A stretch of 64,000 nucleotides of DNA from Minisyncoccota bacterium (GCA_017991395.1 JAGOQQ010000005.1:4726-68725), one strand, 5' to 3'; positions 6,382-47,880 are shown, numbered from the stretch's first letter. Program-made: numbers and translations. The notes: generated by a model not told the origin, from the sequence alone.

Positions 6382-6548
6382 AGTTATTATTTTTAAATAT
6401 TATATATAATTTTAAATATTTGTCAATATTATAAAATTGATTAGCAAACACTTTACATAAGTGTTTTCATGATACCAACTATGTAGCGCTTTGACTTCTT
6501 TGTTATTGACAGGAACTTTAAATATGTTATTATTGTGAAAAACCGAAC

Positions 6549-7091: not shown

Positions 7092-7127
7092 GTATTTAAA
7101 AATCCCCCTTCCGGGGGATTTTATAAT

Positions 7128-9824: not shown

Positions 9825-9862
9825 ATAGTGTGATTATATAATTTTATTAAAAAATGTCAAAC

Positions 9863-27957: not shown

Positions 27958-28506
27958 ATGACATCTCGTAAAACACCAAAAACAAAAACCCGAGTTCGCC
28001 CACGCCTTGAGCGCTGGACAGAAAATGCTATTAGCTGGGTCGGCTCAAAAAACTCAGTTGCGGTACATACCGTCTTTTTTATAGGGATGTTTCTTTTGAT
28101 ATTCCTTGGGGTAAAACCTGAGACAGTACTACTTGTACTTACGACAATTGTGTCACTCGAAGCGATCTACTTGGCAATCTTCATTCAAATGACCGTCAAC
28201 AAAAACACATTCGATATTGAAGAGATTCAAGAAGACGTGGAAGAAATTCAAGAGGATGTGGAAGAGATTCAGAAAGATGTCGATGAGATTCAAGAGGATG
28301 TGGATGAAATTCAAGAAGACGTCGAAGAAATTCAGGAAGACGTGGAAGAAATTCAAGAGGATGTTGATGAGATTCAGGAAGATGTTGACGAGATCGAAAA
28401 AGAAGAAGAGACAGCAGAACAAAAGCATGACCGCGAACTTCTCACAAAGATTGAAGGAACACTTGGAATTTTAATCAAAGAAATTGAACAGTTGAAAAAG
28501 AAATAA
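27958..28506 (+). CDS. Membrane protein (2 TM, DUF1003-like) with an acidic C-terminal heptad array
   Basis: The array is (E/D)EIQEDV x9, encoded by 21-bp tandem repeats at ~28219-28395. A terminator, ccccgcacacgtgcgggg, follows at 28510-28535. Confidence 0.55.
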   Translation: MTSRKTPKTKTRVRPRLERWTENAISWVGSKNSVAVHTVFFIGMFLLIFLGVKPETVLLVLTTIVSLEAIYLAIFIQMTVNKNTFDIEEIQEDVEEIQEDVEEIQKDVDEIQEDVDEIQEDVEEIQEDVEEIQEDVDEIQEDVDEIEKEEETAEQKHDRELLTKIEGTLGILIKEIEQLKKK

Positions 28507-30671: not shown

Positions 30672-32390
30672 CTACATCAATTTTTTGAGCTTATTTTCAA
30701 TAAATTTGTCGAGAGTGTCAAGATTCTTTTTTACCTTTGCAAACACCACTTCTTCTCTTTGACTTAGAGCCCTATCAACCCTAATCTTCTCAAGTGTATC
30801 AAGTTGCGATTCGAGATCCTCTTTGAATAACATTGTTGCCTCGTGAATATTCTTTACTGTGACCATCAATTCTTGATTCATGCGTCGCTTTAATCCAAAG
30901 AATTTATGCCATCCAATATACAGTGCGATAAGTAGCACAACAAACAGTACTACAACAACAATTATCGAAAAGAGTGCAAAACTTATTTTTTCAAATTGAG
31001 TTTCCGAAACAGTAAGGTGTATTTTCTCTGACAATTGACTGCTCACGTTTTCTCCAAGCACACTTCTTGCAGACACTTCAATCACACCAACTTTTTTTAA
31101 TTTTTCCGTTACTACTGAGAATGATCCGTCCTCTGATGTCGTCTGAGTGTATCGCCCTACTTCTTCATCACCCATAAACAACAATACTTCTACTTGTGTA
31201 TTTGGATATTCAGACTTTCCAAGTATCGTCACCGTATCTCCTTTTTGTACATCTTCACCACTAAGTTCGATTTGGGGTATTGAAATTTTTGGTGTAGTAA
31301 ATACTACAGTAGCGACTGTTTGATTTTCTGCCTTGTCATATGCAGTCACTATAAGACTATGATTTCCTTCGTTTTGATACGGCAAAAGATACGTACCGTC
31401 AACAATTTGATCAATAGACACTTTTTGCAATTGCTGATTGTCAATTTTGAGTGTATAAAAATCTATTCCTGAAGTACTATCTTCAGCATCGAGAGTTACT
31501 GATGCTCTATTTTGTACTATTGATATCTTTGGTTCAAAAGATTTTGGTGGAGTTGCATCAACTTTTATAACATAGTGCGTTACTGCACTTGAAGTATTGT
31601 CATTCTTGTATCTCAAATGAAAATAAGAAATACCATCAGAAATACTGCTGAGTGTTTTTTGTGTTACCGAATTATCGTATGAGACTGTAGGAGTTGAGTT
31701 TGATGTCTTGTTGAAAAGAGTTTGAATTGATGTCACTCCGCTAGGTATTTTCCAGCTCAATGTCGCAGAAGTATTTTTGTACCAACGATTTTGATCAGGA
31801 TGTGTATCAGACGAAATAACTGGCTTTGATATCGAAGTTTGTGATTTGTCTGGGACTACAACTTCTGGAATTTCCGCAGGCTTCGCAATTCCAACTGTTA
31901 TAGTGCTTCCATTTTTTGAGCTTAAAATATTTGTCCCAAGACCATCGTTTTTTCGAACTGCACCATCTGTAAACAACACAGATGCAGTCCCTTGTTTCTT
32001 AGCCTTAAACACAATCGACGCTATTGTGCCATTTGAGCCATTGAATCCAGGATTTGCAGCACCGCCATTAAACACAATCCTACCAGTACCATTTGAAAAA
32101 CTTGGTTCTTCAACCCACAAAGTAAATATTGAAGAACTTTTACTTATAGAAATAACTTCCAATACATCATTGGGAAACTGAATCACTCCTTCGGCGTTGT
32201 TGACTGCCAAACCACCAGTATCTACCTTGATCGATACTGTTGTAATATTGCCAACAGATACCGACGATGAACTCGGCGACAGTGTCAACGTGGCAGCGAG
32301 AGCAGGAATAGGAACACAGACACACAGCATCGCGAGAAGTGTGAGTATGTGCTTCCTATTTAAGATTAATTCAATGAACCTGATTCGCAT
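30672..32390 (-). CDS. cell-surface protein with an N-terminal cohesin-like domain, Ig-like repeats and a C-terminal TM anchor
   Basis: It has a signal peptide. A ~140-aa beta-sandwich region (VSVGNITTVSIKVDTGGLAVNNAEGVIQFPNDVLEVISI) resembles a cohesin. A TM helix plus basic tail lies at the C-terminus. Confidence 0.5.
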   Translation of the reverse strand: MRIRFIELILNRKHILTLLAMLCVCVPIPALAATLTLSPSSSSVSVGNITTVSIKVDTGGLAVNNAEGVIQFPNDVLEVISISKSSSIFTLWVEEPSFSNGTGRIVFNGGAANPGFNGSNGTIASIVFKAKKQGTASVLFTDGAVRKNDGLGTNILSSKNGSTITVGIAKPAEIPEVVVPDKSQTSISKPVISSDTHPDQNRWYKNTSATLSWKIPSGVTSIQTLFNKTSNSTPTVSYDNSVTQKTLSSISDGISYFHLRYKNDNTSSAVTHYVIKVDATPPKSFEPKISIVQNRASVTLDAEDSTSGIDFYTLKIDNQQLQKVSIDQIVDGTYLLPYQNEGNHSLIVTAYDKAENQTVATVVFTTPKISIPQIELSGEDVQKGDTVTILGKSEYPNTQVEVLLFMGDEEVGRYTQTTSEDGSFSVVTEKLKKVGVIEVSARSVLGENVSSQLSEKIHLTVSETQFEKISFALFSIIVVVVLFVVLLIALYIGWHKFFGLKRRMNQELMVTVKNIHEATMLFKEDLESQLDTLEKIRVDRALSQREEVVFAKVKKNLDTLDKFIENKLKKLM

Positions 32391-33306
32391 TTCTCTTTCG
32401 CTTACGTAATTTTCTAATGATTAAATAAAGTATACTTACACCAATACATACCATCACAAGTGATGCCCAAGGAAATGCTTTCTTTTGAACAAATGTTGCT
32501 GTTTGGAAATTTCCAGCTTTGTCATATGCTGCCACTATTACATCGAGTTTTCCGTCTTGGTCTATCAGTACATAGTGTGTGCCTGTACGAACAGGTGGAT
32601 TGTTGCCCTCTGTTACTTCATAGTGACTTATCCCAGACTCTTTGTCTGTAGTCTCAAATGAGATAAACTTTTTTCCATCATAGAGATTTTGATCTTGAAT
32701 CAATTCGATTGTAAAAGGTTCTGGAGCGTTGTTATCATTTGATATTATTTCTTTCCAGACATCTTGTGGTTTTTCACGAGCTGTTCCAACGTTGATTGTT
32801 GAAGAATTCTTTGTGATATTACGAGTCGTCCCTAGCCCATCATTTAAAAATGAAGTTATTACTTTTGGAGAAATAGTAAACTTTCCTTCTTGATGTATCT
32901 TTACCACCACACTAAAAAGTAACAACTTTTCACCAGTCACTCCACCTGGTACTCCTCCCACAAAAGAAATCGCACGACCTTCTTCCAAAGAAGGTTTTCG
33001 TGGCCACATTGTAAATGCAGAATTCACCAGACTCAATTCCTTTATTTCAAAATTGCCTTTGTGTTCATCGGTCAAAACAATAGACCCGTCAATAGAATTG
33101 ATTGTCTCCCCTTCGGTGTTTAGATACACCCGAATGATTGCAGTGTCATTTGCATTGATCAGGGTATCGCTCGAGGCACTAATTGTTGCAGCAGATACAA
33201 GTGATGGAATACAAAAGCTGATCAGTACAATACATCCTGCCGAAACAAATGCTCGAACATTATTTTTTATAGTTATTTTATTGATCATAAAGGTTTTGTT
33301 CCCCAC
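32371..33306 (-). CDS. paralogous cohesin-like-domain surface protein with a C-terminal TM anchor
   Basis: Its N-terminal domain is homologous to the 572-aa neighbour (ATISASSDTLINANDTAIIRVYLNTEGETINSIDGSIVL). It has a C-terminal TM and an RKLRKRKR tail. Confidence 0.5.
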   Translation of the reverse strand: MGNKTFMINKITIKNNVRAFVSAGCIVLISFCIPSLVSAATISASSDTLINANDTAIIRVYLNTEGETINSIDGSIVLTDEHKGNFEIKELSLVNSAFTMWPRKPSLEEGRAISFVGGVPGGVTGEKLLLFSVVVKIHQEGKFTISPKVITSFLNDGLGTTRNITKNSSTINVGTAREKPQDVWKEIISNDNNAPEPFTIELIQDQNLYDGKKFISFETTDKESGISHYEVTEGNNPPVRTGTHYVLIDQDGKLDVIVAAYDKAGNFQTATFVQKKAFPWASLVMVCIGVSILYLIIRKLRKRKRNANQVH

Positions 33307-35723
33307 TGGTAAAGAAGGATTGAGAAATCAACAGAGTCAACTTTTGTGTCAACATTTATATCTACGCAAGGATTTGCGAATGGTGATTTTGTTTTCCAGA
33401 AAAAGAGCAATATTGAGAAATCAGTTGAATCTACTTTGCCACTTGCATTGAAGTCTGCCCCATTACAAGATCCATTAGTAGTGGTTGATCCTCCACCTCC
33501 TCCGCCCCCGCCACTACTAGGTGCACTGCCAGAAGTGACAGTAAATACACGCGATGCAGACGAACTGTCTGTGCCGAAATATACTTTGAGTTTAAAATAA
33601 TACGTCCCCGCCGTCGCGACAGTTGCAGACAATCCAGTATTCCAATCTTCACTTGGATTAATAAACTTCGCTGCTAATGCATAGTACGCGTCATCATTTC
33701 CTCCACAATCATTTGATAGGTCAGACACAACACACCACTCGTATTGGTATTCATACCCTGAAAGACCTTCGTTTGTAATAGTCACATTTCCTGTAATCGA
33801 TGTAAGGTCTGTAGCTGTGACTGAGTTGATGAGTACTTGCGCTGGAGATCCTGATACTTCCCAATAATCATTTGTCTGAATTGTCTTACCACTTTCTACT
33901 TCTGTAGAAATAATAGCTTCCCAAAGTCCTTGAGCGGCATTGTTTGAAACCGAGTATGTGTATTCATATACTCCCGTGCTCAACAATGTTGTTGCGACAC
34001 CTGAGACAACAATGTTTCTATCTGCATCATACAAAGTGACTGTTGGAATTGAAAATGGTGCGGTAGGTGTGGCACTTGAATCTAATATAAATACTTTCGT
34101 TCTGTACGTATATCCTGCTTGAACTCTTTCAACATTACCCATTTTTACTGACCAGTTGTCTGCGCCTCCCGCTGTCGAAACTTGTGCATCAACATTTGTT
34201 GCAAGTTGTTCTCCGATTGATCCGACAGTGACGAGTGACGATGAAAGTACATTCCATACATCCTCTGCGGTTATGTCATTTCCATAGTTTGAAAGAGTTC
34301 GTGTGCCATTTGCCCACACTGCTGTTGCAATAGAACTTGTTGAATAATCAGACAATGTTCGTGTTGCAGAATTCCACACATCAGCTGCGGTGAGTGAACT
34401 TGTACCTCGAGTAGATACTTGAACATCCAGATTGTCTGCAATAAGCTTTCCTACACTTCCACTCGCAGTAAGTCCCGATGATGCAGTATCCCAAATAGCA
34501 TCGACAGAAGTAGTTGAAATATCTACCGTACCTGTAAGAGTACGCGTACCGGCCGCCCACACATCAGCTGCAGAGATATCATTTAATGCAAGAATAAGTG
34601 CCTCATTTGCTTGTACTTGTGTAAGAATGTCGGACGATTGTGCATCAACATTTGTTGCAAGTTGTTCTCCGATTGATCCGACAGTGACGAGTGACGATGA
34701 AAGTACATTCCATACATCCTCTGCGGTTATGTCATTTCCATAGTTTGTGAGAGTTCGAGTAGCATTTGCCCATACACCTGAAGAAACCGCATCAACTCCT
34801 GTGGTTGAAAGTGTTCGTGTCGCAGAATTCCACACATCACCTGCGGTGAGCGTACTTGTGCCCCGAGTAGATACTTGAGCATCCAGATTGTCCACGATCA
34901 ACTTACCAATACTTCCTGAAGTAGAGAGTCCCAATGTTGCAGTATCCCAAATAGCATCCACTGAAGTAGTGTCTACAGTAACAGTTCCAGAATTTATTGA
35001 ACGAGTGCCATGTGCCCACACATCAGCTGCAGAAATATTGTTGAGTGCATTGATAAGTCCTTGTGTAGTTTGAATTTCTGCCACAACAGTAGCTTCAGAT
35101 GTATCTATGTAACTTTCAGTGGCAAAACTTCCACCTCCGGCAATATTCTTTGTAGTCAATTGTCTCGTTGGGGCAAAAGCTCCGTCCCACACATCAGCTG
35201 CAAGTGATCCGAAAGCTGTCATGGTACGAGTACCATTACTCCACACATCTGACACAAGAGTTCCAAAGGTTGTGAGGGATCGTGATCCACTCGCCCAGAC
35301 TGCAGAAGCGATAGACGCGTCGCTGACTTCCGCATTTTTAGCAATAAATGTTTTATCGAGTTTCAACAAATCACCACCAATCAAAGTCCCACACGTAATA
35401 AATGTAGGATATTTCCCTTCTACTCCAGGAACTGTATATGAGTAATAATGCCATCCTGTGGCATCGTCAGTCATTGTGGCTTCATTCACAAGAGTTGCTC
35501 CGGCTGGTGAGTATATTGAAATAGTACAATCATCTGTGGTGGGAGTATAGTCATCTTCGTATATAAACTCTCCTATAACAATCGCTTCACTTGGTTCATA
35601 TGTTTCGATAGCATAAGAAATTTGAGTAAAAGAAAATACTAAAAACATTACAATAAATGTTTTTAAAAAGATACCCACTTTTTTATTTTTAAAATAATGG
35701 ATTATCACAGTCAAATTACTCAC
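33285..35723 (-). CDS. large secreted repeat protein with a C-terminal dockerin domain
   Basis: It has a signal peptide. It has internal ~110-aa repeats with ADVW/DVWN motifs. After a Gly8 linker there are two Ca-binding dockerin segments, DFNASGKVDSTDFSILLFFW and DINVDTKVDSVDFSILLYQW. Confidence 0.6.
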   Translation of the reverse strand: MSNLTVIIHYFKNKKVGIFLKTFIVMFLVFSFTQISYAIETYEPSEAIVIGEFIYEDDYTPTTDDCTISIYSPAGATLVNEATMTDDATGWHYYSYTVPGVEGKYPTFITCGTLIGGDLLKLDKTFIAKNAEVSDASIASAVWASGSRSLTTFGTLVSDVWSNGTRTMTAFGSLAADVWDGAFAPTRQLTTKNIAGGGSFATESYIDTSEATVVAEIQTTQGLINALNNISAADVWAHGTRSINSGTVTVDTTSVDAIWDTATLGLSTSGSIGKLIVDNLDAQVSTRGTSTLTAGDVWNSATRTLSTTGVDAVSSGVWANATRTLTNYGNDITAEDVWNVLSSSLVTVGSIGEQLATNVDAQSSDILTQVQANEALILALNDISAADVWAAGTRTLTGTVDISTTSVDAIWDTASSGLTASGSVGKLIADNLDVQVSTRGTSSLTAADVWNSATRTLSDYSTSSIATAVWANGTRTLSNYGNDITAEDVWNVLSSSLVTVGSIGEQLATNVDAQVSTAGGADNWSVKMGNVERVQAGYTYRTKVFILDSSATPTAPFSIPTVTLYDADRNIVVSGVATTLLSTGVYEYTYSVSNNAAQGLWEAIISTEVESGKTIQTNDYWEVSGSPAQVLINSVTATDLTSITGNVTITNEGLSGYEYQYEWCVVSDLSNDCGGNDDAYYALAAKFINPSEDWNTGLSATVATAGTYYFKLKVYFGTDSSSASRVFTVTSGSAPSSGGGGGGGGSTTTNGSCNGADFNASGKVDSTDFSILLFFWKTKSPFANPCVDINVDTKVDSVDFSILLYQWGTKPL

Positions 35724-35749
35724 ACCAAACCACTTACAACCCTAAAAAA

Positions 35750-35908
35750 TTACTTCTTCTTATCAGTGTCTGTTCCTTTGAATGCACCAGTAAAATGCTT
35801 AATTGCATCAACGATACTCTTTGCAAGTTCTGGAATCTTCTTTGATCCAAACAAAAGCACGAGCACGACTGCTATTATAATAATTTCTTTTGTTCCTAAT
35901 CCAAACAT
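35750..35908 (-). CDS. tatA: Sec-independent translocase subunit TatA/E
   Basis: The 52-aa product is MFGLGTKEIIIIAVVLVLLFGSKKIPELAKSIVDAIKHFTGAFKG... It is under 60 aa and so is missing from the ORF track. Confidence 0.75.
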   Translation of the reverse strand: MFGLGTKEIIIIAVVLVLLFGSKKIPELAKSIVDAIKHFTGAFKGTDTDKKK

Positions 35909-35946
35909 ATAAATATAAGTTAAAAATACACTCTAATAAATTGTTG

Positions 35947-36102
35947 CTACTTTTTTGCACCATCTGCTGATTTGAAAATACCCATAAGGTGTCTTACTGC
36001 ATCAGCAATACTCTTTGCAAGTTCTGGAATCTTCTTTGATCCAAACAAAAGCACGATCACGACTGCAATGATAATAATTTCTTTTGTTCCTAATCCAAAC
36101 AT
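35947..36102 (-). CDS. tatA: Sec-independent translocase subunit TatA/E (second, tandem paralog)
   Basis: The 51-aa product is MFGLGTKEIIIIAVVIVLLFGSKKIPELAKSIADAVRHLMGIFKSADGAKK. Confidence 0.75.
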   Translation of the reverse strand: MFGLGTKEIIIIAVVIVLLFGSKKIPELAKSIADAVRHLMGIFKSADGAKK

Positions 36103-36113
36103 AATTTTGTGTG

Positions 36114-36881
36114 TTAGTTTTCCAAAAGGACATGCTCCTTTTGAGATTTATTAAAGAGAACTGTGATTTCAAAAATCAAAATCAATGGCACCGCCATTAA
36201 CACTAATGATAAACCGTCTGTCGGCGGAAGTAAAGAGACTAACACAAATATTCCTGCAATTACATGCCTACGCTTTGACTTCAGAAATGACACACTGAGT
36301 ATGCCCATTCGAATTAAAAATGTAACAACTAACGGTAAAATAAAAAGTATCCCAAGTAAAGACGAGGTGAATACAATCTGAGAAATAAACAACCCAATAT
36401 CCCAATAATTCACCACTCCTAGTCCCACATTTATATGAGCTACAAACTTGACCGCATAATAGAGCGTCCCACACCCATACAAAAACCCTACAAGATACAT
36501 CACAATTCCCATCGGCAACGATAGTAAAAAAGTTGTGCGCTCTTTTTTGAGTAATCCCGGTTTAACAAATGTATATAGTTGAAAAATAAAAATTGGTATT
36601 ATCACCACGCACGCAGTAAAAAATCCAATACTCATTGCAAGATCTATCAATTGAAAAGGAGACGTGGTCACTATCTTCACGCCTTCAATCTGAATCTTGC
36701 TCAACATAAACTTGATGATTGGCGACGTTCCCAAAAACCCAAGAACAAACACAACCAAAAAAATTTTGGTCAGCAACACAATATTACTTCTTAATTCTTC
36801 TAGATATACAGCGTATTTATCTATGCTTTTCTGGAAATTGTTCACCCTCCTATTCTGACATAATAAAGATATTTCCTCCAC
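36114..36881 (-). CDS. tatC: Sec-independent translocase subunit TatC
   Basis: It is a 6-TM protein with TatC-like topology and sequence. It lies upstream of two tatA genes on the same strand. Confidence 0.8.
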   Translation of the reverse strand: MEEISLLCQNRRVNNFQKSIDKYAVYLEELRSNIVLLTKIFLVVFVLGFLGTSPIIKFMLSKIQIEGVKIVTTSPFQLIDLAMSIGFFTACVVIIPIFIFQLYTFVKPGLLKKERTTFLLSLPMGIVMYLVGFLYGCGTLYYAVKFVAHINVGLGVVNYWDIGLFISQIVFTSSLLGILFILPLVVTFLIRMGILSVSFLKSKRRHVIAGIFVLVSLLPPTDGLSLVLMAVPLILIFEITVLFNKSQKEHVLLEN

Positions 36882-37030: not shown

Positions 37031-37690
37031 TTAACTTATTGATTGAATTTTTCCCTTTTTTCGTTTTTTTAACATTGAAACAACGTTGTTTGTGGTACTT
37101 TCATCTGGAATAATTACTTCTGTTGCATCTAGGGGATCACTTGGCGGTATGAGCACTTCCGGCTCTACAACTTCAGGCACCGAGCCGTCATCTGACGGTT
37201 CGACCACTTCACTGTCATCCTGATTTACACCTTCGACTTCACCTTCTGTTTCGACGACAGGTGTTTCTTGCGGTACTTCATCAAGATTTTCATTGGTCTC
37301 CTCTTCTTCTACAACATCAACAGGCTCTATGCGCTGTTGTTCTATTTTTGTTTGCTCGGTACTTATGACTTCATCCAATGAATCAACCTCGAGAGTACCA
37401 CCGTCCATTTTTTCCAAAAGCTCATTGGACATTCTGACATACGACGCAGAAGTGTGAGTTGATTGTGGATCAATTTTCAAAATTTCTTCACCCAATTCTT
37501 TTGCGCTGTTGTATCGATATACCAACCCTCCGTAGGCAATATATTGAGCGTGGAATGATCCTGTAATCACGCCTGGATTCGAAACATCATACACTTCAAT
37601 AAGTGCATTGTCATCGTAATCACCTGTTGCAGTTGCAACCTTTAAGGTTTGATTTTCCGAAACTAATTGATCTTTTTCAATATGAATCAT
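37031..37690 (-). CDS. hypothetical acidic protein (C-terminal half E/D/V/P-rich)
   Basis: It is a 219-aa ORF. I recognised no motif. Confidence 0.5.
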   Translation of the reverse strand: MIHIEKDQLVSENQTLKVATATGDYDDNALIEVYDVSNPGVITGSFHAQYIAYGGLVYRYNSAKELGEEILKIDPQSTHTSASYVRMSNELLEKMDGGTLEVDSLDEVISTEQTKIEQQRIEPVDVVEEEETNENLDEVPQETPVVETEGEVEGVNQDDSEVVEPSDDGSVPEVVEPEVLIPPSDPLDATEVIIPDESTTNNVVSMLKKRKKGKIQSIS

Positions 37691-37691
37691 A

Positions 37692-40355
37692 TTAAGATTG
37701 AGTTAGGAGTGCGCGCACTTTAATATTGTCAGCTAATGATGTTGGAGTGTATCGAATATATGTTGTTTCGTTGAGCTTGTCAGTAGAATCGTACGAGCCC
37801 CATGCAGCACCATCATTTGTAGATTTTTGAAATGAACCTAGTGGTACTCCAGCGTCCGTGGTGTCAGTGAGTAACAATGCTCCAGTTTCAGCATTGTATA
37901 AACGAATTTTAAGTGCAGGAACAGTACCTCCAAATGCAGTTGAAAATCTCCATGCAAATATTTTACTACTTATTGAAGATTGTCCAACTGAAGGCTGGTA
38001 GTGACTGTCTGTCGTATTGTCTTCATATGTACAGCAAATACTATACACTCTATTTGGGAGACATAGTGCACCAATTGTTCGAAACTCTATTGCAAACTGA
38101 ATATTTGCACCCGGTGACGCAGCTGACAAATCACCCGTCTTGTCCACGAGTGTCCACGCACCTGAATCATCATCTATTCCTGAAGTCCTATAATAAATTC
38201 GTATAGGCTCTGTAGGCATCGTGAGACCTGCGTCTCCAAGATATCCTGCAGTGCTCACATATACACGCGAAAGCACTTCAGCGTTGGTAGTAAGCATTGA
38301 AGGTGTAATGAGTCGTTGGTTGACGGTCCCATCAGCATATTCCCAATCAGCACCCAGTGGCACTGTATACATTACGTTTGTAGTTGCAGCTGTTCCTGTA
38401 CGCACCATATACACAAGTCCTGCCTGTGACCACACAGAAAGAAGTGCACCCTGAGGATTTGGATGTGGAACAGAACTATTGTCCGCTGCCGATTGATCTT
38501 GCTGACCAGTATCTGCGAGAAACATATGATCAAATTCATATGAACCCGATGCGTCATATTTTGTAATATACGCGCGACGATGAGCCGTGGTGGCACCAGC
38601 TCCTGTTGAGGTCACAATAAGCCTATCAATCTGGTCTGCAATCTCAACACTTGCCAACAATGAAGACAGAGTATATGTTCCTGATCCTCCTGTTGGGACT
38701 TCTGTCATAGAATCAGAAACCCACGAGGCACTTCCTTGCACAATATCAGTCAACGGTGCGCGATGAATTCTTGTGGTAGATGCAAAATAAAGACATTTAA
38801 TACCAGAACCTGGACCATGAGAAAGTGTGCCAATACGCCCATTGTTTGCCTGAGAGACAGTACCTGTAACTGTTTGTGTTGCTGTATGAAGAACCCATGC
38901 AGACGCTGTCTTGCCTCCCTGTATTCCACCTAAAGTTGTTAAGTCTGTTCTAAAATTGTATTTGTATACCTGCGGAGTTGTAGCTGCTTGAAGCTCAATT
39001 ATATACGCATACTGCGTAGTCCAATTCACCCTATCATCCAAAGCAAGTCCACAAGAAATACCGTTTCCTCCTACAATGACATACGCAGATCCACCGGGCA
39101 CAGTAGTTGCTGATGAAATAGTAAGACCAGTAGTAGACCCAACCGCAGTAATGGTAAACCAATCAGTAATGGCAGATGGAGTGGTTGATCCAAATCCAAT
39201 TTTACATCCCAAATACAATGCAGCTGTCCAAGCAGTACCAACACCTGTAACAGCAGTGGTTCCTGGTACGGTCACAGTTCCTGTTGCATACACAGAATCA
39301 AGATCTACCAAACTATACGCAGCCTTTGCTTTGTCCACTGTTGTTGCAGCAGAAATGGTAGTACCACCCACCACAAAATCGTCATATGATAGACCATTTA
39401 CGAGCGTTAGACCAGCTGATGCAATCACTGCAGCCGTGGTTGATGTGAGTACTTTGAAGTCTTCTATAACATACGCAGTACCTGCGGACACTGTAATATT
39501 TGCGGCAGTTCCTCCTGTTCCTGTTGCAGTAATATTTGATTGCAGAGTGAGTGAAGTGTCAGAACCAACAGCGTTTATGTAATACCAAGTTGCTATCTGT
39601 GTTGGATCAGTACTTCCAAAACCAATCCGTGAACCAATTGCAATACGATCAGCCGACCATGTAGTACCAGACCCCGTGACTGTGGCACCAGAGACTTCTG
39701 CTGTACCTGTAGTATATGTATCATACACAACGCGCATACCTCGAATCGTCTGTACACCTCCACCTGTTGGATAAGTGATTGTAATAAAACCTCTCCAAGT
39801 AAAAAGCGATGTCAATCTGTCATAAACAAAACAAGAAATACGTCGAGTTGTGGCAGCTGTCGCTATATCAGCCAAAAAAACCCAATCTTTTTTGACTTCT
39901 TTATTGATTACAAAAGAAGTTCCACCTGCGATAGTTCCCGCAGAAGCAGAGAGTGTGAGAGATGTCGCAGAATCGATTGCGGTAATTGTATACCACGTTG
40001 TAATTTCTGCTATGTTTGTCGAACCAAATCCAATTCGAGCACCAATTGGAACACCGTCTGCGAGCCACCCAGTACCAGAACCGGTCACTGCTGTTCCTGA
40101 AACAGCAACTGTACCAGTGGAATACAAACCTTCTTTGTTTACCCATGAGATTACGTGTGGGTATGTAGAAGGTATAGATGTTCCAGTTTCAAAAGGACGA
40201 CCAACACCTATGGTCATTGGTCCAATATAATTGTCCTCTGCCGAGGCGCCAGAATATTGCTCAATCAAATCTCCCATCATTGTAAATGATGAATCGTAGG
40301 AATCATACGGTACTGTTGTCCCAGTAAATACGTGTTCAATTGCTCTTTTTGCCAT
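37692..40355 (-). CDS. giant Thr/Gly/Ala/Ser-rich repeat protein (putative surface or fibre-like protein)
   Basis: The 887-aa product has three ~60-aa internal repeats (TGTVAVSGTAVTGSGTGW...IGFGST....ITTWYTITAIDS). There is no obvious signal peptide. Confidence 0.55.
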   Translation of the reverse strand: MAKRAIEHVFTGTTVPYDSYDSSFTMMGDLIEQYSGASAEDNYIGPMTIGVGRPFETGTSIPSTYPHVISWVNKEGLYSTGTVAVSGTAVTGSGTGWLADGVPIGARIGFGSTNIAEITTWYTITAIDSATSLTLSASAGTIAGGTSFVINKEVKKDWVFLADIATAATTRRISCFVYDRLTSLFTWRGFITITYPTGGGVQTIRGMRVVYDTYTTGTAEVSGATVTGSGTTWSADRIAIGSRIGFGSTDPTQIATWYYINAVGSDTSLTLQSNITATGTGGTAANITVSAGTAYVIEDFKVLTSTTAAVIASAGLTLVNGLSYDDFVVGGTTISAATTVDKAKAAYSLVDLDSVYATGTVTVPGTTAVTGVGTAWTAALYLGCKIGFGSTTPSAITDWFTITAVGSTTGLTISSATTVPGGSAYVIVGGNGISCGLALDDRVNWTTQYAYIIELQAATTPQVYKYNFRTDLTTLGGIQGGKTASAWVLHTATQTVTGTVSQANNGRIGTLSHGPGSGIKCLYFASTTRIHRAPLTDIVQGSASWVSDSMTEVPTGGSGTYTLSSLLASVEIADQIDRLIVTSTGAGATTAHRRAYITKYDASGSYEFDHMFLADTGQQDQSAADNSSVPHPNPQGALLSVWSQAGLVYMVRTGTAATTNVMYTVPLGADWEYADGTVNQRLITPSMLTTNAEVLSRVYVSTAGYLGDAGLTMPTEPIRIYYRTSGIDDDSGAWTLVDKTGDLSAASPGANIQFAIEFRTIGALCLPNRVYSICCTYEDNTTDSHYQPSVGQSSISSKIFAWRFSTAFGGTVPALKIRLYNAETGALLLTDTTDAGVPLGSFQKSTNDGAAWGSYDSTDKLNETTYIRYTPTSLADNIKVRALLTQS

Positions 40356-40367
40356 ATATAATAAAAA

Positions 40368-41018
40368 TTACACTTCTAAATAATCAATGTTAATTTGCAC
40401 AGTAGTTGTTCCTGATATTACACAGTATAACACCTCGTCAACACCACCCTCAATATAATTTGGATGATTGTTTGCCCCATACAGTCCACCAGTCTTGGGT
40501 GAGACATATTTTTCATGATCTGTACCACCTGCAGTAAATCGAAATGATACGGATGTCGCATCGGCAGTAAGAGAAAAACGTGATGCATACACACGAATTT
40601 TATTTCCAGAACCAGGTGTCAGCACATTTCCAGAAGCTGCGAGGTTTAATGAGAGCTTGCTGACACTTTGTCCTGCAATGAGCGCACTCACTGTCTCTTC
40701 TGTTGCAGGATTGATACGAGTATTGGAAGCATTTTTAACTCCTACCACATTTGAGGTCGGAGTACTTCCTGCGACATACGCCTTTGCACTCTTGGGAAGT
40801 ACAGAGGATGCAATAAGTCCAAGCCCGGTAAGTCCTGCAACCTTCAAAAAAATTCTTTTATTGTTATCTGCGGGATTTTCTTGTTCGGATAATACTTTGG
40901 ATTTTTTCTTAGATAGACGAACCTGTGAAGTCACCGGAGTATCAGAAACAATCACTTTTTGATTAAGTGATTTAGAGGACACCAATTTGAAAGAATATTT
41001 AGAATCTAAAAATCGCAT
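40368..41018 (-). CDS. hypothetical secreted protein
   Basis: It has an internal hydrophobic segment (IFLKVAGLTGLGLIASSVL). It is co-directional with and adjacent to the giant repeat protein. Confidence 0.5.
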   Translation of the reverse strand: MRFLDSKYSFKLVSSKSLNQKVIVSDTPVTSQVRLSKKKSKVLSEQENPADNNKRIFLKVAGLTGLGLIASSVLPKSAKAYVAGSTPTSNVVGVKNASNTRINPATEETVSALIAGQSVSKLSLNLAASGNVLTPGSGNKIRVYASRFSLTADATSVSFRFTAGGTDHEKYVSPKTGGLYGANNHPNYIEGGVDEVLYCVISGTTTVQINIDYLEV

Positions 41019-41098
41019 ACACTACACTTCTTATTCTACTACACACTAGTTTTTATACAATGAAAAATCCCCACAATGTGGGGATTTTTCATTGTGGA

Positions 41099-41329
41099 CT
41101 ATTTTCCACCCATCAATTTTTGGAGTTCGGCTTGATACTTTTGCATTACCACCATAGTTGCGTTTGACTGAGGCATTCCACCTTTTGTTTTTTCTTGGAT
41201 TTCTTTACCAATCTTTTCAAAAAGTTCTGGATTTTCAGTCACAAGTTTTATAATTCTCTCCTGTTCAGCCTCTGGTACTCCCTTGAGCTGACGTTTGAGC
41301 ATTTGCTTCATTAAAAAATTCTTAAACAT
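41099..41329 (-). CDS. small hypothetical protein (76 aa)
   Basis: I chose the internal Met start MFKNFLMKQMLKRQ. The longer track ORF would overlap the convergent signal-peptide gene. Confidence 0.4.
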   Translation of the reverse strand: MFKNFLMKQMLKRQLKGVPEAEQERIIKLVTENPELFEKIGKEIQEKTKGGMPQSNATMVVMQKYQAELQKLMGGK

Positions 41330-41414
41330 TTCATCATTGTATAGCAAAAATCTAATTTCGTACAACTTGACTATGTGATGTTTTAGTCTATAATCACAAG
41401 TCAAAACGAACCTT

Positions 41415-41882
41415 ATGAAAAAAATACACATAGTACTACTCTTGCTTCTACTTCCGCTATACACGCATGCCCAGGAAAAACCTCCAGGACTCACGTATAT
41501 TGATTCTATCAATTTGTCTGTGCAGTCTACCGCACTTGAACTTGCCATGTTTGAATGCCTTCCAGAATCAGACAGTGGCGAGCTTGAAATCATACCAATT
41601 GGAAGCATGTACTTCTGTGTTGTCCAATGTATTTCAAATGATAAATTATTTCAATTTGAGTACGAAAGTAGTTCATGGATTAATATACCATTACCCTCAC
41701 TACAAGATCCTGAAGTCGCAACAATTCGAAAAGTGAAATCACTTTTTCAAAAAAACGGACAGATTTTTATCACACTCCACTGGTCCGGTGCTGAAATTCG
41801 AGGATATGATGATGAACGTCCGTATGTATATGAAGACAAGACATTTACACTGTCTTATTTGCAACAATTGGTGAAGAAATAA
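41415..41882 (+). CDS. hypothetical secreted protein
   Basis: It has a clear signal peptide (MKKIHIVLLLLLLPLYTHAQE). Confidence 0.55.
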   Translation: MKKIHIVLLLLLLPLYTHAQEKPPGLTYIDSINLSVQSTALELAMFECLPESDSGELEIIPIGSMYFCVVQCISNDKLFQFEYESSSWINIPLPSLQDPEVATIRKVKSLFQKNGQIFITLHWSGAEIRGYDDERPYVYEDKTFTLSYLQQLVKK

Positions 41883-43053: not shown

Positions 43054-44289
43054 TTATTTCCGTACTCGATACTTCCACCCTTCCACAAACAAACTAAAGA
43101 ATTTGAGTGGTGCGACAATGCCTGCAAAATACACGAAGTCAATTGCGTGACGAATAAAATATCCCAATCCTCCATAAATTTTTATTGGGCCGTACACAAA
43201 CACACCCCAGTCATTACCCACTGGAATCGAGAGCGCAACCTTCTTCGGTGAATACAGTGCGCGGTTTTTGATACCACGAATCTGTCCCAAAATTTGTTTT
43301 GCGACGAATGCACCATCATACATTGCCGTCTGTGCAAGGCCACTATATTTTGTATTTGCCGCATCACCGACTATATATACATTGGTATGACCATGTGCTT
43401 GCAAATACTCATCGACAACCACCCTTTTATTATCAGCAAATTCGAGTCCGTTTATTTGTGAATATATTCGACTCAATCGAGTTCCTGCTGTCCAAATAAC
43501 CGTCTTTGCTTTTAGTGACATATCTTTCATAAAAACCTGTTCCACTTCCTCACGCTCGAGACGTCGATTGAGAAAAATATTCACACCGAGTTTTCGTAGT
43601 TGTGCAAGAATTTTTTCTGACACATCAGGAGGTAGCTGTGGTACCACTCGTGGATTTGACTCAATAAGATCAACGGTGATAAATGACGGATCTACCTCAG
43701 TAAGTTTGGCAATTTTTTTCATAAAAATAGCGAGGTCGCCCGCAACTTCTACGCCAGAAGGCCCTCCACCCACCACAACAATATGAAAATGTGACACGAG
43801 TTCATTTTGCGATGGATGCGTATGTGTTTTGAAAAGAGTTGTAATATGTTCCTTCAAACGATTTGCTTCTTTGATTGATTTGAAACCAAATGACATTGTG
43901 TCGAGTCCTGGCACATCAAAATACGTCGTCTCACTCCCCATCGCAAGCACAAGATAATCCGCAATATACTCACCTGTGTCTTGGCAGACAACTTTTTTTC
44001 CTATAACATCTACAGACGTCACTGTATCAATAAGTATTTCAACATTACTTGGAACCATTTCTTCAAGTGGTATCGCCACTTCAATTGGCGAAGAACCAGT
44101 GACTACACGATATAGCCCTGGATAATATTCAAAATAAGACTTGTTTGAAATCAAAGTCACCTTCACCGAACTTCCGACTCTAAATGCAATCCGTCGAGCT
44201 GTTTCAATACCAGCAAATCCTCCCCCAACCACAATCACCCGAGTTACCAATGAATTTTGTGTCATAGATAAAAAAAGTATACCATGCAC
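43054..44289 (-). CDS. ndh: type II NADH dehydrogenase / FAD-dependent pyridine nucleotide-disulfide oxidoreductase
   Basis: It has two Rossmann GxGxxG motifs (VVGGGFAGIE and VVGGGPSGVE). Confidence 0.75.
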   Translation of the reverse strand: MHGILFLSMTQNSLVTRVIVVGGGFAGIETARRIAFRVGSSVKVTLISNKSYFEYYPGLYRVVTGSSPIEVAIPLEEMVPSNVEILIDTVTSVDVIGKKVVCQDTGEYIADYLVLAMGSETTYFDVPGLDTMSFGFKSIKEANRLKEHITTLFKTHTHPSQNELVSHFHIVVVGGGPSGVEVAGDLAIFMKKIAKLTEVDPSFITVDLIESNPRVVPQLPPDVSEKILAQLRKLGVNIFLNRRLEREEVEQVFMKDMSLKAKTVIWTAGTRLSRIYSQINGLEFADNKRVVVDEYLQAHGHTNVYIVGDAANTKYSGLAQTAMYDGAFVAKQILGQIRGIKNRALYSPKKVALSIPVGNDWGVFVYGPIKIYGGLGYFIRHAIDFVYFAGIVAPLKFFSLFVEGWKYRVRK

Positions 44290-45767
44290 TATTCGACTAG
44301 TGTAAATTCATCCGGATCATACTCATCAGCATCTTTTTCCTCCTTTGAAGTCCTTCTAATTCGAAATACAGCAACAACACCCACAATGAGCACAATCACA
44401 AACAATCCATAATATATAAGTTTTGAAAAATCTTTCGACATAGTGAGTGAATCAACTGCCGTGAGAGTATTTGCAGAAAGTGTATTTTCCGTGAGAGATG
44501 AGTCCCCTGAATCAACAGGATCAACTGGGCCAGACGATGCGACAATCGAATCACTCTCGCCTTTGACAGAAACAGTACTCACGCGTGCCACAGATTTTGT
44601 CGCAGTACTCGCACTTGTACCACCTGATGTGTTCGCAAGTGCAATCGTCGAACTTTTTGCTGACGCCACGACACCACTTGGATGAATAAGTGTTGCACTA
44701 TAGAGTGGACTAAATCCAAGAACTGAAGGTCGAAGGATAATTTTTTTACCTTTCATCAAAATTGTATTTTTCGGCAACACATACGAAGTACTTCCTGAAT
44801 GTATCTTCCACATCGACAAATCAATATCATCTCCTGTGGTGTTTGAAAGTTCAACTTTTGGCTCCGATGGAGTACCAAGAGACGTGATAAGCACACCACC
44901 ATCAGTCACAGAAATAATTTTCTTTATGACAATCTCCGGTGTAAATGCACCGCGTGATTTGTAGTACTCAAAATACACCACATACTCACCTGCGTCGTTG
45001 TAAATATGAGTAAATGGTAATCCATCAAAATATTCATGTACAGTACCATCTCCAAAATTCCACACATATCTTCCGGGCAATACTACTTTTCTTTCTGTGT
45101 TTACAATCAATGTCGAAAACTGTGTGGGCACACCTTTTGTAATTGGATCTTTGACACTAATTGTCCCCGCATAACGAGGAATCACATACTCTTTATCAAC
45201 CTCAATTTCTTCTTCCTCTGTTTCTTCTTCGTTTTCTTCTACTTCTGTTGTCGTTTTTGTATTTACACTTCCAGGTGTTGGCGTCCCTGGTGCAAGTACA
45301 TTTCCAAATGATCCAAGCGAATTTCCATCACCTGCACCACCTTGCGATTTTGTATAGGTTACCGAATCAATAACGTCATTGTTTGAATCCACAATCGAAA
45401 GTGAATCACCTTCATTTGCAAGTGCCATCACGGTATCAATAACTGTTCCCGAATACGACGGGTAATCATTTTTAAACACAGTCGCATTTGCTGCCAAAAT
45501 CACATACCCATTTGCCGGCACAGAAAGCGAACCAGCTCCGCCATTTACTGGCGGAGCATTGAGTCCGTGATTTGCCCCGTCGTTGAATTTGTATCCTTCA
45601 AGTGTTATTGAAGAAGATGAATCATTGTGTAGTTCAATCCATTCGTGATCTGTATCTGTACCTGCCAAATCATACATGATTTCATTTATACTCAAGCCTG
45701 CATGTGCATAGAGTGGCACACACCATACTCCAAGAGTTATATATACAAATACGAGAAACGATTTCAT
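44289..45767 (-). CDS. secreted lamin-tail-domain (LTD) protein with a C-terminal TM anchor
   Basis: It has a signal peptide. The LTD motif is INEIMYDLAGTDTDHEWIELHN...GY. It has a C-terminal TM and an acidic tail. Confidence 0.6.
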   Translation of the reverse strand: MKSFLVFVYITLGVWCVPLYAHAGLSINEIMYDLAGTDTDHEWIELHNDSSSSITLEGYKFNDGANHGLNAPPVNGGAGSLSVPANGYVILAANATVFKNDYPSYSGTVIDTVMALANEGDSLSIVDSNNDVIDSVTYTKSQGGAGDGNSLGSFGNVLAPGTPTPGSVNTKTTTEVEENEEETEEEEIEVDKEYVIPRYAGTISVKDPITKGVPTQFSTLIVNTERKVVLPGRYVWNFGDGTVHEYFDGLPFTHIYNDAGEYVVYFEYYKSRGAFTPEIVIKKIISVTDGGVLITSLGTPSEPKVELSNTTGDDIDLSMWKIHSGSTSYVLPKNTILMKGKKIILRPSVLGFSPLYSATLIHPSGVVASAKSSTIALANTSGGTSASTATKSVARVSTVSVKGESDSIVASSGPVDPVDSGDSSLTENTLSANTLTAVDSLTMSKDFSKLIYYGLFVIVLIVGVVAVFRIRRTSKEEKDADEYDPDEFTLVE

Positions 45768-45774
45768 ATCAGTA

Positions 45775-47880
45775 TTATGCAGACGTGCCTAAAATTTTTC
45801 GGAGTACGTCTTCGGGGACTTCTTTTCTTGTTTCGACTTTTGGTGGTGTGTGGTCGCTTTGTGGTGTAGAAATTTTCTCTTCACGTGTATGCACTGAAAA
45901 ACTTTCCTTTATTACTGTTTCTGAATTTTGTGTTTTTTCATCTCTGCGTACTGGAGTATCTTTTTTCATCACCCTACTCAAAAGTGCTTTGAGTTCTGCT
46001 TTTTTTTCTGCGGTTGGTTCTTTTTTTGAGGTATTGTTGAGAGTAGAAAGTGAGATTGATTCTACAGATTTTGTGGAAGTAGACACAAGAGACCCCTGTG
46101 TGACGGTGTGTTCAGTATTTTTCGTGTGCACTACATTTGATGTTCTTGGTGCCTCACTTTTCTCAACTCTTGGAGCTTGTGTTTCAAGAACACTCAGTAG
46201 CTCTTTAAGTTTTGGAGAATGTGGAGCATGTGTGTGCGCTGGCCGAGGATTGACTGACGCTGGCTTTCTCACATCTGTATTAGTGTGATTTTTGAACTGG
46301 TGTGGTGCTGGTGCGACACGAGGTGTTGGCGCTGGTGTTCGCGGTGGTTCTGGCCGCACAACCGGGCGCTCGTGACTAGTATCTCTGTGTGGTTTTGACT
46401 GAACTGGTGTTTGAGTTTGAGGTTGTGGCTCTGGTCGTGGTGCGATATTTTCAGTGATAGGATTTCGAATTGCAGTTTCAATTTTGCCTTGAAATGGTTT
46501 TCGCATACCTTCAACTCGTGGAGCATCATACTCTTTTTTAACACCCGCATCCCTTTCTTTGAGATCCTTTTCAGATTTTGAACTATCGCCATGCCAAGAA
46601 TTGATTTCATTCTCCACTTCTTCTTTTGGTCGAGCATAATTTCTCCGTGAGGCGTCAATCATTTTGTCGAGATACACAAACTCTGGCTTCGGCCACGGTG
46701 CAAGCGTATGGGCAGAAAATGGCTTTGATGTCATCCCGCCGATCATGAGTCGAAGATAAATCTGCGCGAAACCGAGGTTGGTCAAATCTTGTGCGGTAAA
46801 TGTCGGCGCAAATTCTTTTTCAAAAATTTCTGCATCAGAAGGTCCAATTCTAAAGGTCACCATGCTTCCGACGTTTCCAAGAATCGCATCACGCACTTCA
46901 TCTACCATTTGAGTCACATACTGGTTTGCGACAGTAAGACAGAGCTTGTACTTTCGAGCCTCAGATAGAATTTGCGCAAATGATTCGTTTGCAAAGTTTT
47001 GAAATTCGTCCACATAAAAATAAAATGGAGGAAGCTTGTCGATTTCACTTTGCGAAATTTCAGCACGAGACATTGCCGCAAGATAAATTTTGGTTACAAA
47101 CATACCGCCAAGAAGATTCATATTTTGTTCGCCAATTCTTCCCTTTGAAAGATTGATGATAAAAATCTTTTTCTTGTCCATGATTTCTCGAATATCAAAA
47201 GACGATGTGGGCTGGCCGATGATATTTCTAATCAACGGATTGAGTGTATATTGTCCGATTTTATTTTGAATTGCCGGAGTTGCCTCAGCCGCAAATTTGT
47301 CAGTATATTTTGCATATTCATCAACCCAAAAAGATTTTACGGCTGGGTCTTTGATATTGTCTACAATTTTCTTTCGAAATTCTTTGTCTGAATACATTTT
47401 GTTCACACCCATCAATGTAGATCCCGGATACTCAATAAGAGCAAGAAGTGTATTGTTCAAAATGTATTCCATACGCGCACTCCATGCGTCTTGCCAGATC
47501 TTTTTGAAAACACTCATGAGCCCAGACACCACAAGGTGGCGTTTGTCTACACCAATGTCTTCGAGTACATTAAATGACATCGGATACTCTGTATCAAATG
47601 GGGCAAAATAAATCACATCGTTGATTCTATCTTCAGGTACATACTCAAGTGCTTTTTCTGCAAGTGATCCGTGCGGGTCAATCACACACACACCTTCTCC
47701 ATTTTGGATATCTTGAATAACCAGATTTTCAAGCAGTGTTGATTTACCTGTACCAGTCTTACCGATGATGTACATATGTCGAGTACGGTCCTTGGCTTGA
47801 ATACCAAATTTTGTTTTCTTATTACGAAAATCCGTTTCGCCGAAGTATGTTACTTTTTTATCTGGATCAAAGTCGCTCAT
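45775..47880 (-). CDS. VirD4/TraD/TraG-like coupling-type ATPase (DUF87 AAA-like) with a long Pro-rich disordered C-terminal tail
   Basis: Walker A is IIGKTGTGKSTL. Walker B is FYFYVDEFQNF. The C-terminal ~280 aa are P/T/K-rich. Confidence 0.55.
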   Translation of the reverse strand: MSDFDPDKKVTYFGETDFRNKKTKFGIQAKDRTRHMYIIGKTGTGKSTLLENLVIQDIQNGEGVCVIDPHGSLAEKALEYVPEDRINDVIYFAPFDTEYPMSFNVLEDIGVDKRHLVVSGLMSVFKKIWQDAWSARMEYILNNTLLALIEYPGSTLMGVNKMYSDKEFRKKIVDNIKDPAVKSFWVDEYAKYTDKFAAEATPAIQNKIGQYTLNPLIRNIIGQPTSSFDIREIMDKKKIFIINLSKGRIGEQNMNLLGGMFVTKIYLAAMSRAEISQSEIDKLPPFYFYVDEFQNFANESFAQILSEARKYKLCLTVANQYVTQMVDEVRDAILGNVGSMVTFRIGPSDAEIFEKEFAPTFTAQDLTNLGFAQIYLRLMIGGMTSKPFSAHTLAPWPKPEFVYLDKMIDASRRNYARPKEEVENEINSWHGDSSKSEKDLKERDAGVKKEYDAPRVEGMRKPFQGKIETAIRNPITENIAPRPEPQPQTQTPVQSKPHRDTSHERPVVRPEPPRTPAPTPRVAPAPHQFKNHTNTDVRKPASVNPRPAHTHAPHSPKLKELLSVLETQAPRVEKSEAPRTSNVVHTKNTEHTVTQGSLVSTSTKSVESISLSTLNNTSKKEPTAEKKAELKALLSRVMKKDTPVRRDEKTQNSETVIKESFSVHTREEKISTPQSDHTPPKVETRKEVPEDVLRKILGTSA

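Follow-up and report, generated by a model that had tools for sequence, protein, structure and literature searches.

Does a bacterium with a small genome hold a secreted protein at its surface through a cohesin-dockerin contact, and, if so, to what end? The question is raised by positions 30,672 to 36,881 of a 64,000-nucleotide (nt) stretch of DNA from a Minisyncoccota bacterium (GCA_017991395.1 JAGOQQ010000005.1:4726-68725), here called the window, in which the genes for a dockerin-tailed protein of 812 amino acids (aa) and for two cohesin-like membrane proteins of 311 and 572 aa, together the trio, adjoin genes of the twin-arginine translocation (Tat) system. An earlier note on this DNA had read the cluster as a membrane-tethered cohesin-dockerin complex for adhesion or scaffolding in a small-genome bacterium, and the last of these points is borne out by the source, a metagenome-assembled genome (MAG) of Candidatus Paceibacterota whose annotation calls the 572-aa protein 'hypothetical'. 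Paceibacteria, members of the Parcubacteria and the candidate phyla radiation (CPR), are abundant, have tiny genomes and presumably spend their lives on other cells; to our knowledge, almost nothing is known about the mechanism of this attachment.

Our analysis confirms that the trio is a genuine cohesin-dockerin module, non-cellulosomal and anchored by transmembrane helices, whose partners presumably bind one another. Domain identities, topology signals, gene overlaps and the presence of the conserved trio in many species of Paceibacteria support this identification directly. We consider it rather likely that the trio encodes a cell-surface assembly held together by cohesin-dockerin contact, which is probably not a cellulosome but a surface fibre without enzymes. 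All genes concerned lie on the minus strand and are transcribed in the order tatC, tatA, tatA, 812 aa, 311 aa, 572 aa, followed by ychF and murB. The trio and its modules are listed here, with the analyses that define them in brackets.

33285..35723, minus strand: 812-aa Sec-secreted repeat protein with dockerin (Pfam MG2, E = 1.7e-7; Dockerin_1, E = 7e-4)
34149..35318, minus strand: repeat region of the 812-aa protein, about residues 136-525 (sequence reading, self-similar high-scoring segment pairs against relatives)
33504..34136, minus strand: region between repeats and dockerin, about residues 530-740 of the 812-aa protein (Pfam MG2 at 536-613; alignment with TEP1 MG2 in the PDB)
33288..33470, minus strand: dockerin module as assigned, residues 752-812 of the 812-aa protein (tail alignment, profile search, Pfam)
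32371..33306, minus strand: 311-aa type I membrane protein (AlphaFold2 (AF2), Foldseek, hydropathy)
32782..33189, minus strand: predicted cohesin module, about residues 40-175 of the 311-aa protein (top Foldseek matches are cohesins)
30672..32390, minus strand: 572-aa type I membrane protein (AF2, homologues, Pfam on orthologues)
31887..32294, minus strand: predicted cohesin module, residues 33-168 of the 572-aa protein (paralogy, orthologue Pfam matches, conservation)
30912..30986, minus strand: transmembrane helix, about residues 469-493 of the 572-aa protein (AF2 model, hydropathy)
30675..30911, minus strand: cytoplasmic helical domain, residues 494-572 of the 572-aa protein (long helix in the AF2 model; conserved positions)

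The dockerin of the 812-residue protein

The 812-aa protein comprises a signal peptide (about residues 1-38), a conserved N-terminal domain (about 39-135), repeats, an immunoglobulin (Ig)-like region, a Gly-rich linker and the dockerin. Its last 61 residues include the loops DFNASGKVDSTD and DINVDTKVDSVD, with FSILL after each of them, and the tail conforms to the type I dockerin pattern of two tandem repeats of ~22 residues, each consisting of a 12-residue EF-hand-like loop and then a helix, where Asp or Asn is expected at positions 1, 3, 5, 9 and 12 of the Ca2+ loop. The earlier note had called this a bona fide dockerin on the strength of two DxNxDGxVDxxD loops; the identity stands by family evidence, but the motif is only nearly matched, with Thr at position 6 of loop 2 and Ser at position 5 of loop 1, where the family consensus has Asp.

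When scanned alone against Pfam Dockerin_1 (PF00404), the check that had been proposed, the window protein scored 20.2 bits (E = 7e-4), below the gathering cut-off of 22.9 bits, and the best single-sequence match of its tail in the PDB was a C. cellulolyticum dockerin at E = 0.05. Its family, however, gives a firmer answer. The protein has at least 334 homologues, most of them with precomputed PF00404 and PF01835, and 78 of 81 representatives with this tail subtype pass Dockerin_1 (E ≤ 0.001; best 2.5e-13). The homologue alignment of the tail has the consensus xCxGADFNxDxxVNSVDFSILLxFWKTxPPFxNxCVDINxDxKVDSVDFSILLxQW, and a profile of this tail family finds 18 solved type I dockerins in the PDB at E < 0.02, the best being 1daq (1.2e-6) and 2vn6_B (3e-6, across the whole module), together with 2y3n_B and 4fl4_A. 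We accept the dockerin identity because consensus, profile matches and Pfam results from the family outweigh the sub-threshold score of the window's own sequence. By these sequence criteria, the tail would be a real dockerin of a distinct and very uniform subtype, which differs from cellulosomal dockerins in the Cys that precedes each loop in most members of the alignment and in an unusually invariant DFSILL helix start.

Ahead of the dockerin, the Pfam MG2 match aligns with the MG2 domain of TEP1, and the rest of the ~530-740 region is presumably Ig-like. The repeats are short 'DVW....TRTLT' motifs inside two copies of a unit of ~150 residues, and the number of copies seems to differ between family members (~640-1350 aa long), as judged from reading the sequences. 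An origin as a tandem DNA repeat fails as an explanation, since Tandem Repeats Finder found none in this gene. A phage origin of the repeat region is likewise unsupported: tblastn found nothing among 50,697 phage records, and PHROG gave no more than a marginal match. Four relatives that share the repeat region and lack the dockerin (P0187, P0232, P0197 and P0236) end instead in a C-terminal transmembrane helix, as expected if the job of the dockerin is to tether the protein to the cell; in these relatives, a direct membrane anchor replaces docking.

The two membrane-anchored paralogues

The two neighbouring genes had been described as co-directional and paralogous, with cohesin-like N-terminal domains, and the evidence agrees on each count. 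Both open reading frames (ORFs) are present on the minus strand, and in the ORF map of the window they overlap each other by 20 nt, while the 812-aa and 311-aa ORFs overlap by 22 nt. The proteins are 29% identical across 170 N-terminal aa (E = 1e-10), and a second, Ig-like domain is common to both (E = 4e-5). The 572-aa protein has at least 361 full-length homologues, the best 120 of them 43-98% identical, and the 311-aa protein has 133 homologues of ~300 aa.

A scan for Pfam Cohesin (PF00963), also suggested beforehand, was negative for both window proteins at E ≤ 1, but detected the family in 4 of 36 orthologues of the 572-aa protein (best 1.7e-8), 29 of which carry Big_13. Besides, several homologues have a precomputed PF00963 match, and some orthologues of the 572-aa protein bear the NCBI name 'cohesin domain-containing protein'. 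Searches of the PDB with the single proteins and with full-length family profiles gave at best marginal matches for the cohesin modules (311-aa profile against R. flavefaciens 5aoz and 5m2o, E = 0.15-0.5).

Structure prediction from family alignments was more informative for the 311-aa protein, modelled by AF2 with a predicted local distance difference test (pLDDT) score of 90.4 as a signal peptide, a beta-sandwich (about 41-174), one Ig-like domain, a transmembrane helix (about 279-297) and a basic tail. The cohesin fold is defined as a nine-stranded, flattened jelly-roll sandwich of ~140 residues, and cohesins were the top Foldseek matches of the model: 2w1n (cohesin plus FN3 of C. perfringens GH84C) at E = 5e-10, 2vo8 with a target-normalised TM-score of 0.76 and a root-mean-square deviation of 3.0 Å over 143 columns, 6kgc_A (0.69, target-normalised), 4dh2_C (0.67, likewise), 6kgd_A and 2jh2_A, a set that includes C. 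acetobutylicum CohA2 and C. thermocellum OlpC. The 572-aa protein (pLDDT 83.6) was modelled as a signal peptide (1-32), a beta-sandwich (33-167), three Ig-like domains, a transmembrane helix and a long cytoplasmic helix reaching residue 571. Searched whole, this model returned mostly generic multi-Ig proteins, with 2w1n at rank 12 and, as best match, the Haloferax S-layer glycoprotein 7ptp_A, likewise a match of the generic multi-Ig kind, at TM-scores of 0.18-0.21. Judged by modelled fold, paralogy and orthologue matches, the N-terminal domains of both proteins are predicted to be divergent cohesins.

With 24 of 52 invariant positions, the cohesin module is the most conserved part of the 572-aa protein. 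Cohesins canonically bind dockerins through their 8-3-6-5 sheet, and in the 572-aa family the invariant residues are concentrated on what would, assuming canonical strand order, be strands 3, 5, 6 and 8.

Both proteins have a C-terminal transmembrane helix, as had been claimed, and the basic tail claimed to follow it is found in the 311-aa protein (RKLRKRKRNANQVH), whereas the 572-aa protein has in its place a conserved, charged, helical cytoplasmic domain of 79 residues (494-572), with W494, K496, H516, K523, L526, Q529, L530, L533, E534 and L542 among its conserved positions. In line with the proposed anchoring without S-layer homology (SLH) or sortase signals, neither protein contains an SLH or LPXTG match. 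A Loki-CTERM match is sub-threshold (13.5 versus 19.9 bits), and the family alignment holds no conserved CTERM sorting motif ahead of the transmembrane helix. The 572-aa family is absent from IMG/VR.

Conservation of the trio and a proposed assembly

Among 185,579 species-representative genomes, 436 encode a relative of the 572-aa protein, under labels that include Nomura-, Taylor-, Adler-, Jorgensen-, Wildermuth-, Niyogi-, Zambryski-, Komeili- and Gribaldobacteria, although several of the submitted labels look wrong. Gene order was counted in the best 80 loci, the denominators being the loci with enough sequence: the 311-aa gene lies directly upstream of the 572-aa gene in 73 of 76, and 52 of 56 have upstream a gene for a homologue of the 812-aa protein that ends in a dockerin. 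The trio genes also overlap in the locus L001, by 4 nt and 20 nt. This order and these overlaps uphold the genetic side of the proposed membrane-tethered complex, and we infer the dockerin-cohesin binding that would complete it.

Conservation within the proteins is uneven. In the 54 genomes that have every part, the dockerin averages 68% pairwise identity and the 572-aa cohesin 58%, compared with 36% in the Ig stalk of the 572-aa protein, so that in the 812-aa and 572-aa proteins the presumed interaction modules are the most constrained; the 311-aa protein breaks the pattern, with 44% for its cohesin and 49% for its Ig domain. That conservation peaks exactly on the dockerin and the 572-aa cohesin module argues against the idea that the modules act independently, without mutual binding, the beta-sandwiches recognising, for example, glycans and the double EF-hand serving as a Ca2+-dependent stabilising or wall-binding tail. 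This idea draws on the lack of a Pfam Cohesin match in either window protein and on the single occurrence of dockerin-like and cohesin-like modules in many non-cellulosomal genomes, but one dockerin gene adjoins and overlaps two cohesin genes in most loci examined, and we consider it quite improbable. Identity matrices of the dockerin protein's Ig region covary with those of the 311-aa protein at r = 0.73 and of the 572-aa protein at r = 0.30, although such mirror-tree style correlations are confounded by shared phylogeny and serve only as hints.

We propose the following model for a cohesin-dockerin surface assembly. The 311-aa and 572-aa proteins would be exported by Sec, lose their signal peptides and be retained in the membrane by their C-terminal transmembrane helices, holding their N-terminal cohesins off the cell on stalks of one and three Ig-like domains, respectively, and hence at different heights. 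The 812-aa protein would also leave by Sec and be released, after which its Ca2+-binding, two-loop dockerin would plug into one or both cohesins. Its repeats and conserved N-terminal domain would then project outward as a long, non-enzymatic, membrane-tethered fibre, for which attachment to a host cell or a surface seems the most plausible use. Dockerin-cohesin binding, the cohesin that is chosen and the use of the fibre as an adhesin are the conjectural elements of the model. As its two repeats hardly differ, the dockerin might bind in either of two orientations or even bridge both paralogues, although this is speculation.

Several observations weigh against this model. Besides the sub-threshold Dockerin_1 score and the lack of Cohesin matches in the window's own proteins, the fold class assigned to the N-terminal domains is a very common beta-sandwich, and transglutaminase and Fab matches appear in the same E-value range of the 311-aa Foldseek list, although only the cohesins there, and not these matches, have high target-normalised TM-scores. 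The dockerin subtype is also widespread: a search of 1.84 billion representative proteins with the tail profile recovered ~540 clusters (50% identity) at E ≤ 1e-10, almost always with the subtype at the extreme C-terminus. The proteins that bear it range from 80 to 2177 aa and differ in their Ig, FN3, MG2 and lectin-like (3keto-disac_hyd) domains. Thus, the cohesins may have more than one partner, among which the 812-aa protein is not necessarily the most important. Finally, most orthologues are 43-65% identical across orders, which is unusually high for a host-specific adhesin and fits a structural role in the envelope at least as well.

The breadth of the subtype is what would be seen if the membrane cohesins were a general docking platform for many dockerin-tailed proteins encoded elsewhere, with the 812-aa protein as one client or even a non-preferred one. 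We regard this as possible, though on the doubtful side: the loop pair of the 812-aa protein is the only dockerin-like pair in the 64-kb window, the adjacent dockerin gene is kept in the 52 of 56 loci, and many of the short 'clients' may be fragments of metagenomic genes.

High conservation across distant lineages bears in turn on a different alternative, in which the trio would not be an adhesin and would instead build an S-layer-like or wall-spanning structure, with the cytoplasmic helix of the 572-aa protein tied to an intracellular partner. The conserved cytoplasmic domain, the position of the locus on the core chromosome near ychF, murB and murJ, and the match to the Haloferax S-layer glycoprotein, generic as it is, are in keeping with such a scaffold; there is, however, no sign of lattice formation, the TM-scores to 7ptp are low, and a repeat number that varies, as in the 812-aa protein, is more easily reconciled with a fibre than with a lattice. 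We consider it unlikely.

A tethered fibre assembled by docking, which we continue to prefer, invites comparison with cellulosomes, and the earlier note had suggested that enzymes could be attached to the surface in this way. This finds no support: among the 81 representatives of the dockerin subtype, the cargo consists of MG2, Big_6, fn3 and other Ig-like domains, and the top 25 Pfam families include no enzyme or catalytic domain, glycoside hydrolases included. Surface scaffoldins of cellulosomes are anchored by SLH repeats, as in SdbA and OlpB of Clostridium thermocellum, or by a sortase signal, as in ScaE of Ruminococcus flavefaciens. The assembly proposed here would resemble them in that a surface cohesin captures the C-terminal, two-repeat dockerin of a secreted partner, and the modules themselves are comparable, the tail-family profile aligning to solved type I dockerins and the 311-aa model to the cohesins of OlpC and CaCohA2. 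Unlike these anchors, however, the present ones have a C-terminal transmembrane helix, plus a cytoplasmic domain in one paralogue, in place of SLH or LPXTG elements, and, unlike cellulosomes, they occur in a Paceibacteria/CPR host with one cohesin per protein, no multi-cohesin scaffoldin and non-catalytic cargo of the Ig/FN3 type. The locus therefore lacks the marks of a cellulosome, having a single cohesin per anchor and no dockerin-borne carbohydrate-active enzymes (CAZymes) among those top 25 families.

Closer in structure are the non-cellulosomal cohesins of C. perfringens (GH84C NagJ, 2w1n; GH33, 2vo8; and 2jh2), which are the nearest to the 311-aa model and share its order of a cohesin followed by an Ig/FN3 domain. 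In that species, cohesin-dockerin modules join secreted, toxin-like enzymes to one another, whereas the cohesins described here are integral membrane proteins in which no enzyme domain was found. Peer et al. are said to have surveyed, in 2009, cohesin- and dockerin-like modules outside cellulosome producers, Archaeoglobus fulgidus among them, where they reportedly often occur as single modules. The present case resembles those in having a single cohesin or dockerin in a non-cellulolytic organism, but differs in that the partners are encoded by adjacent genes, whose order of three is the same in many species, and this order suggests a specific and testable pairing.

The modules belong to known families, and databases already name some of the proteins; it is the use of the modules that differs from cellulosomes. 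In the literature that could be searched on cohesins or dockerins in Patescibacteria, CPR, Parcubacteria and Paceibacteria, no description of this trio turned up. As a conserved and concrete candidate interaction pair that can be cloned, it offers a handle on the surface biology of Paceibacteria, and it extends cohesin-dockerin biology to transmembrane anchors, a non-enzymatic setting and an invariant dockerin subtype with a conserved cysteine pair. Such a pair could also serve as an orthogonal part in protein-assembly engineering.

The tat genes and the upstream cassette

The trio had been placed upstream of a tatC-tatA-tatA operon, but in the direction of transcription it lies downstream of these genes, starting 26 nt after the second tatA copy on the same strand.

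36114..36881, minus strand: tatC (Pfam TatC, PF00902, 128 bits, above threshold)
35947..36102, minus strand: tatA copy 1, 51 aa (Pfam TatA_B_E, PF02416, 43.7 bits, above threshold)
35750..35908, minus strand: tatA copy 2, 52 aa (Pfam TatA_B_E, PF02416, 51.2 bits, above threshold)

TatA and TatC occur in Paceibacteria, where they have been noted only as present (PMC9166423). The tandem tatA copies, identical at 40 of 51 positions (78%), had been thought unusual; of the 45 loci whose upstream sequence extends for 6.5 kb or more, however, 14 have two copies and 10 have one, so that the pair is a lineage feature rather than an oddity.

Their closeness to the trio, together with a linked tatC upstream on the same strand in 25 of these 45 loci, would suit a Tat-dependent system in which the surface proteins fold in the cytoplasm and leave through the adjacent TatC-TatA-TatA. 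The signal peptides contradict it. A Tat signal is recognised by an N-terminal S/T-R-R-x-F-L-K before a hydrophobic region, which none of the three proteins has; their families carry classical Sec-type signal peptides, with n, h and c regions and AxA-like sites at the end, and Arg-Arg occurs within the first 35 residues in 0 of 118, 4 of 92 and 0 of 119 members. We therefore reject Tat export of the trio proteins. In the other 20 of the 45 loci, moreover, the trio stands without a same-strand tatC upstream within up to 10 kb, and a conserved [KR]R-x-F-L-K signal sits on another neighbour, the 216-aa protein, all of which makes a Tat-dependent trio most improbable.

The 216-aa gene belongs to a group of features that lies outside positions 30,672 to 36,881, upstream of tatC.

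40368..41018, minus strand: 216-aa protein with Tat-type signal NKRIFLKVAGLTGLGLIASSVLPKSAKA (orthologue motif conservation)
37692..40355, minus strand: 887-aa protein with phage tail-fibre repeats (PHROG phrog_1591, E = 1.8e-18)
37031..37690, minus strand: acidic protein of 219 aa, basic at its C-terminal end, encoded after the 887-aa gene and before tatC (homologues in 14 loci)
41056..41096, no strand: hairpin with a 19-bp stem, just upstream of the 216-aa gene

The motif, NKRIFLK in the window protein, takes the form [KR]R-x-F-[LI]-K in 22 of 23 orthologues (KR in 18, RR in 4), preceded by an N-terminal extension of 50-60 residues and followed by a hydrophobic region and an AxA site; from these signals, the 216-aa protein is a probable substrate of the adjacent TatC-TatA-TatA. 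A comparable arrangement is phoD-tatAd-tatCd of Bacillus subtilis, a minimal TatA-TatC system next to the gene of its substrate. Here, too, tatC and small tatA genes lie near the gene of a protein with a twin-arginine-type signal, but the 216-aa protein has a long N-terminal extension, a motif that is mostly K-R and interchangeable C-terminal domains, and a large, signal-less, tail-fibre-like protein is encoded after it.

Within the 216-aa family, the signal and an N-terminal module (GSTPTSNVVGVKxxxNxRINPATEET) are kept, while the C-terminal domains are swapped among at least three unrelated types, the swap going with the type of large protein encoded downstream. In other Paceibacteria, at L001 (2280-6002) and L004 (1672-5490), the place of the 887-aa and 219-aa genes is taken by genes for unrelated proteins of ~950 aa, with only weak, sub-threshold Kelch-motif matches, and of ~290-310 aa, with a weak glucosaminidase (PF01832) match. 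The whole looks like a swappable cassette upstream of tatC.

The 887-aa protein contains three copies of the phage tail-fibre N-terminal repeat phrog_1591, and its hydropathy profile shows no hydrophobic segment or signal peptide. Four genomes encode versions with 77-82% full-length identity to it, whereas YchF is 58-66% identical (in the two of the four where it was found) and the 572-aa protein 34-49%; the excess over YchF suggests horizontal exchange of the 887-aa protein between distant lineages. PDB searches with the 216-aa and 887-aa proteins returned nothing useful. In L085 (IMGVR_UViG_3300032296_000825), at 5614-10433, a homologue of collagen-like tail fibres is immediately followed by a relative of the 887-aa protein with 39% identity. 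The contig is classed as viral, although that status is doubtful, since genes of the PolA, RecA and sugar-epimerase types are on the same contig.

In five loci where no tatC was detected, the 216-aa gene stands in divergent orientation beside the dockerin gene, and on this account the 216-aa block and the trio may be functionally connected. It is conceivable, though distinctly unlikely in our estimate, that the nine-gene block from 41018 to 30672 encodes a single host-contact organelle of Paceibacteria, comprising a base of cohesins with a dockerin fibre, a Tat export route and an exchangeable recognition cassette. In such an organelle, the signal-less 887-aa protein could exit folded as a Tat 'hitch-hiker' on the 216-aa protein.

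The hairpin at 41056-41096, a perfect 19-bp stem of bidirectional terminator-like form between the 216-aa gene and an ORF at 41099-41608, probably marks the upstream boundary of the cluster; no other strong structure of terminator-like form occurs nearby, and none lies inside the block. The wider setting is ordinary core chromosome, with ClpB, LepA, MurJ, LeuRS, MurB, YchF, UvrABC and Ddl, and ychF follows the 572-aa gene in 19 other genomes. Because of these surroundings and this adjacency, a prophage or island origin of the locus was rejected.

Elsewhere in the window, a secreted 492-aa protein with lamin-tail and PKD domains adjoins a 701-aa P-loop ATPase of the VirD4/TraG/HerA-like type (44289-47880, minus strand), and this pair is followed by an extracytoplasmic function (ECF)-type sigma factor and a DUF5667 protein (47945-49418). 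At 27958-28506 on the plus strand, a small membrane protein consists of a transmembrane segment and then an acidic, heptad-like repeat (DVEEIQE, ~9 times), with weak DUF948 and coiled-coil matches as its only ones.

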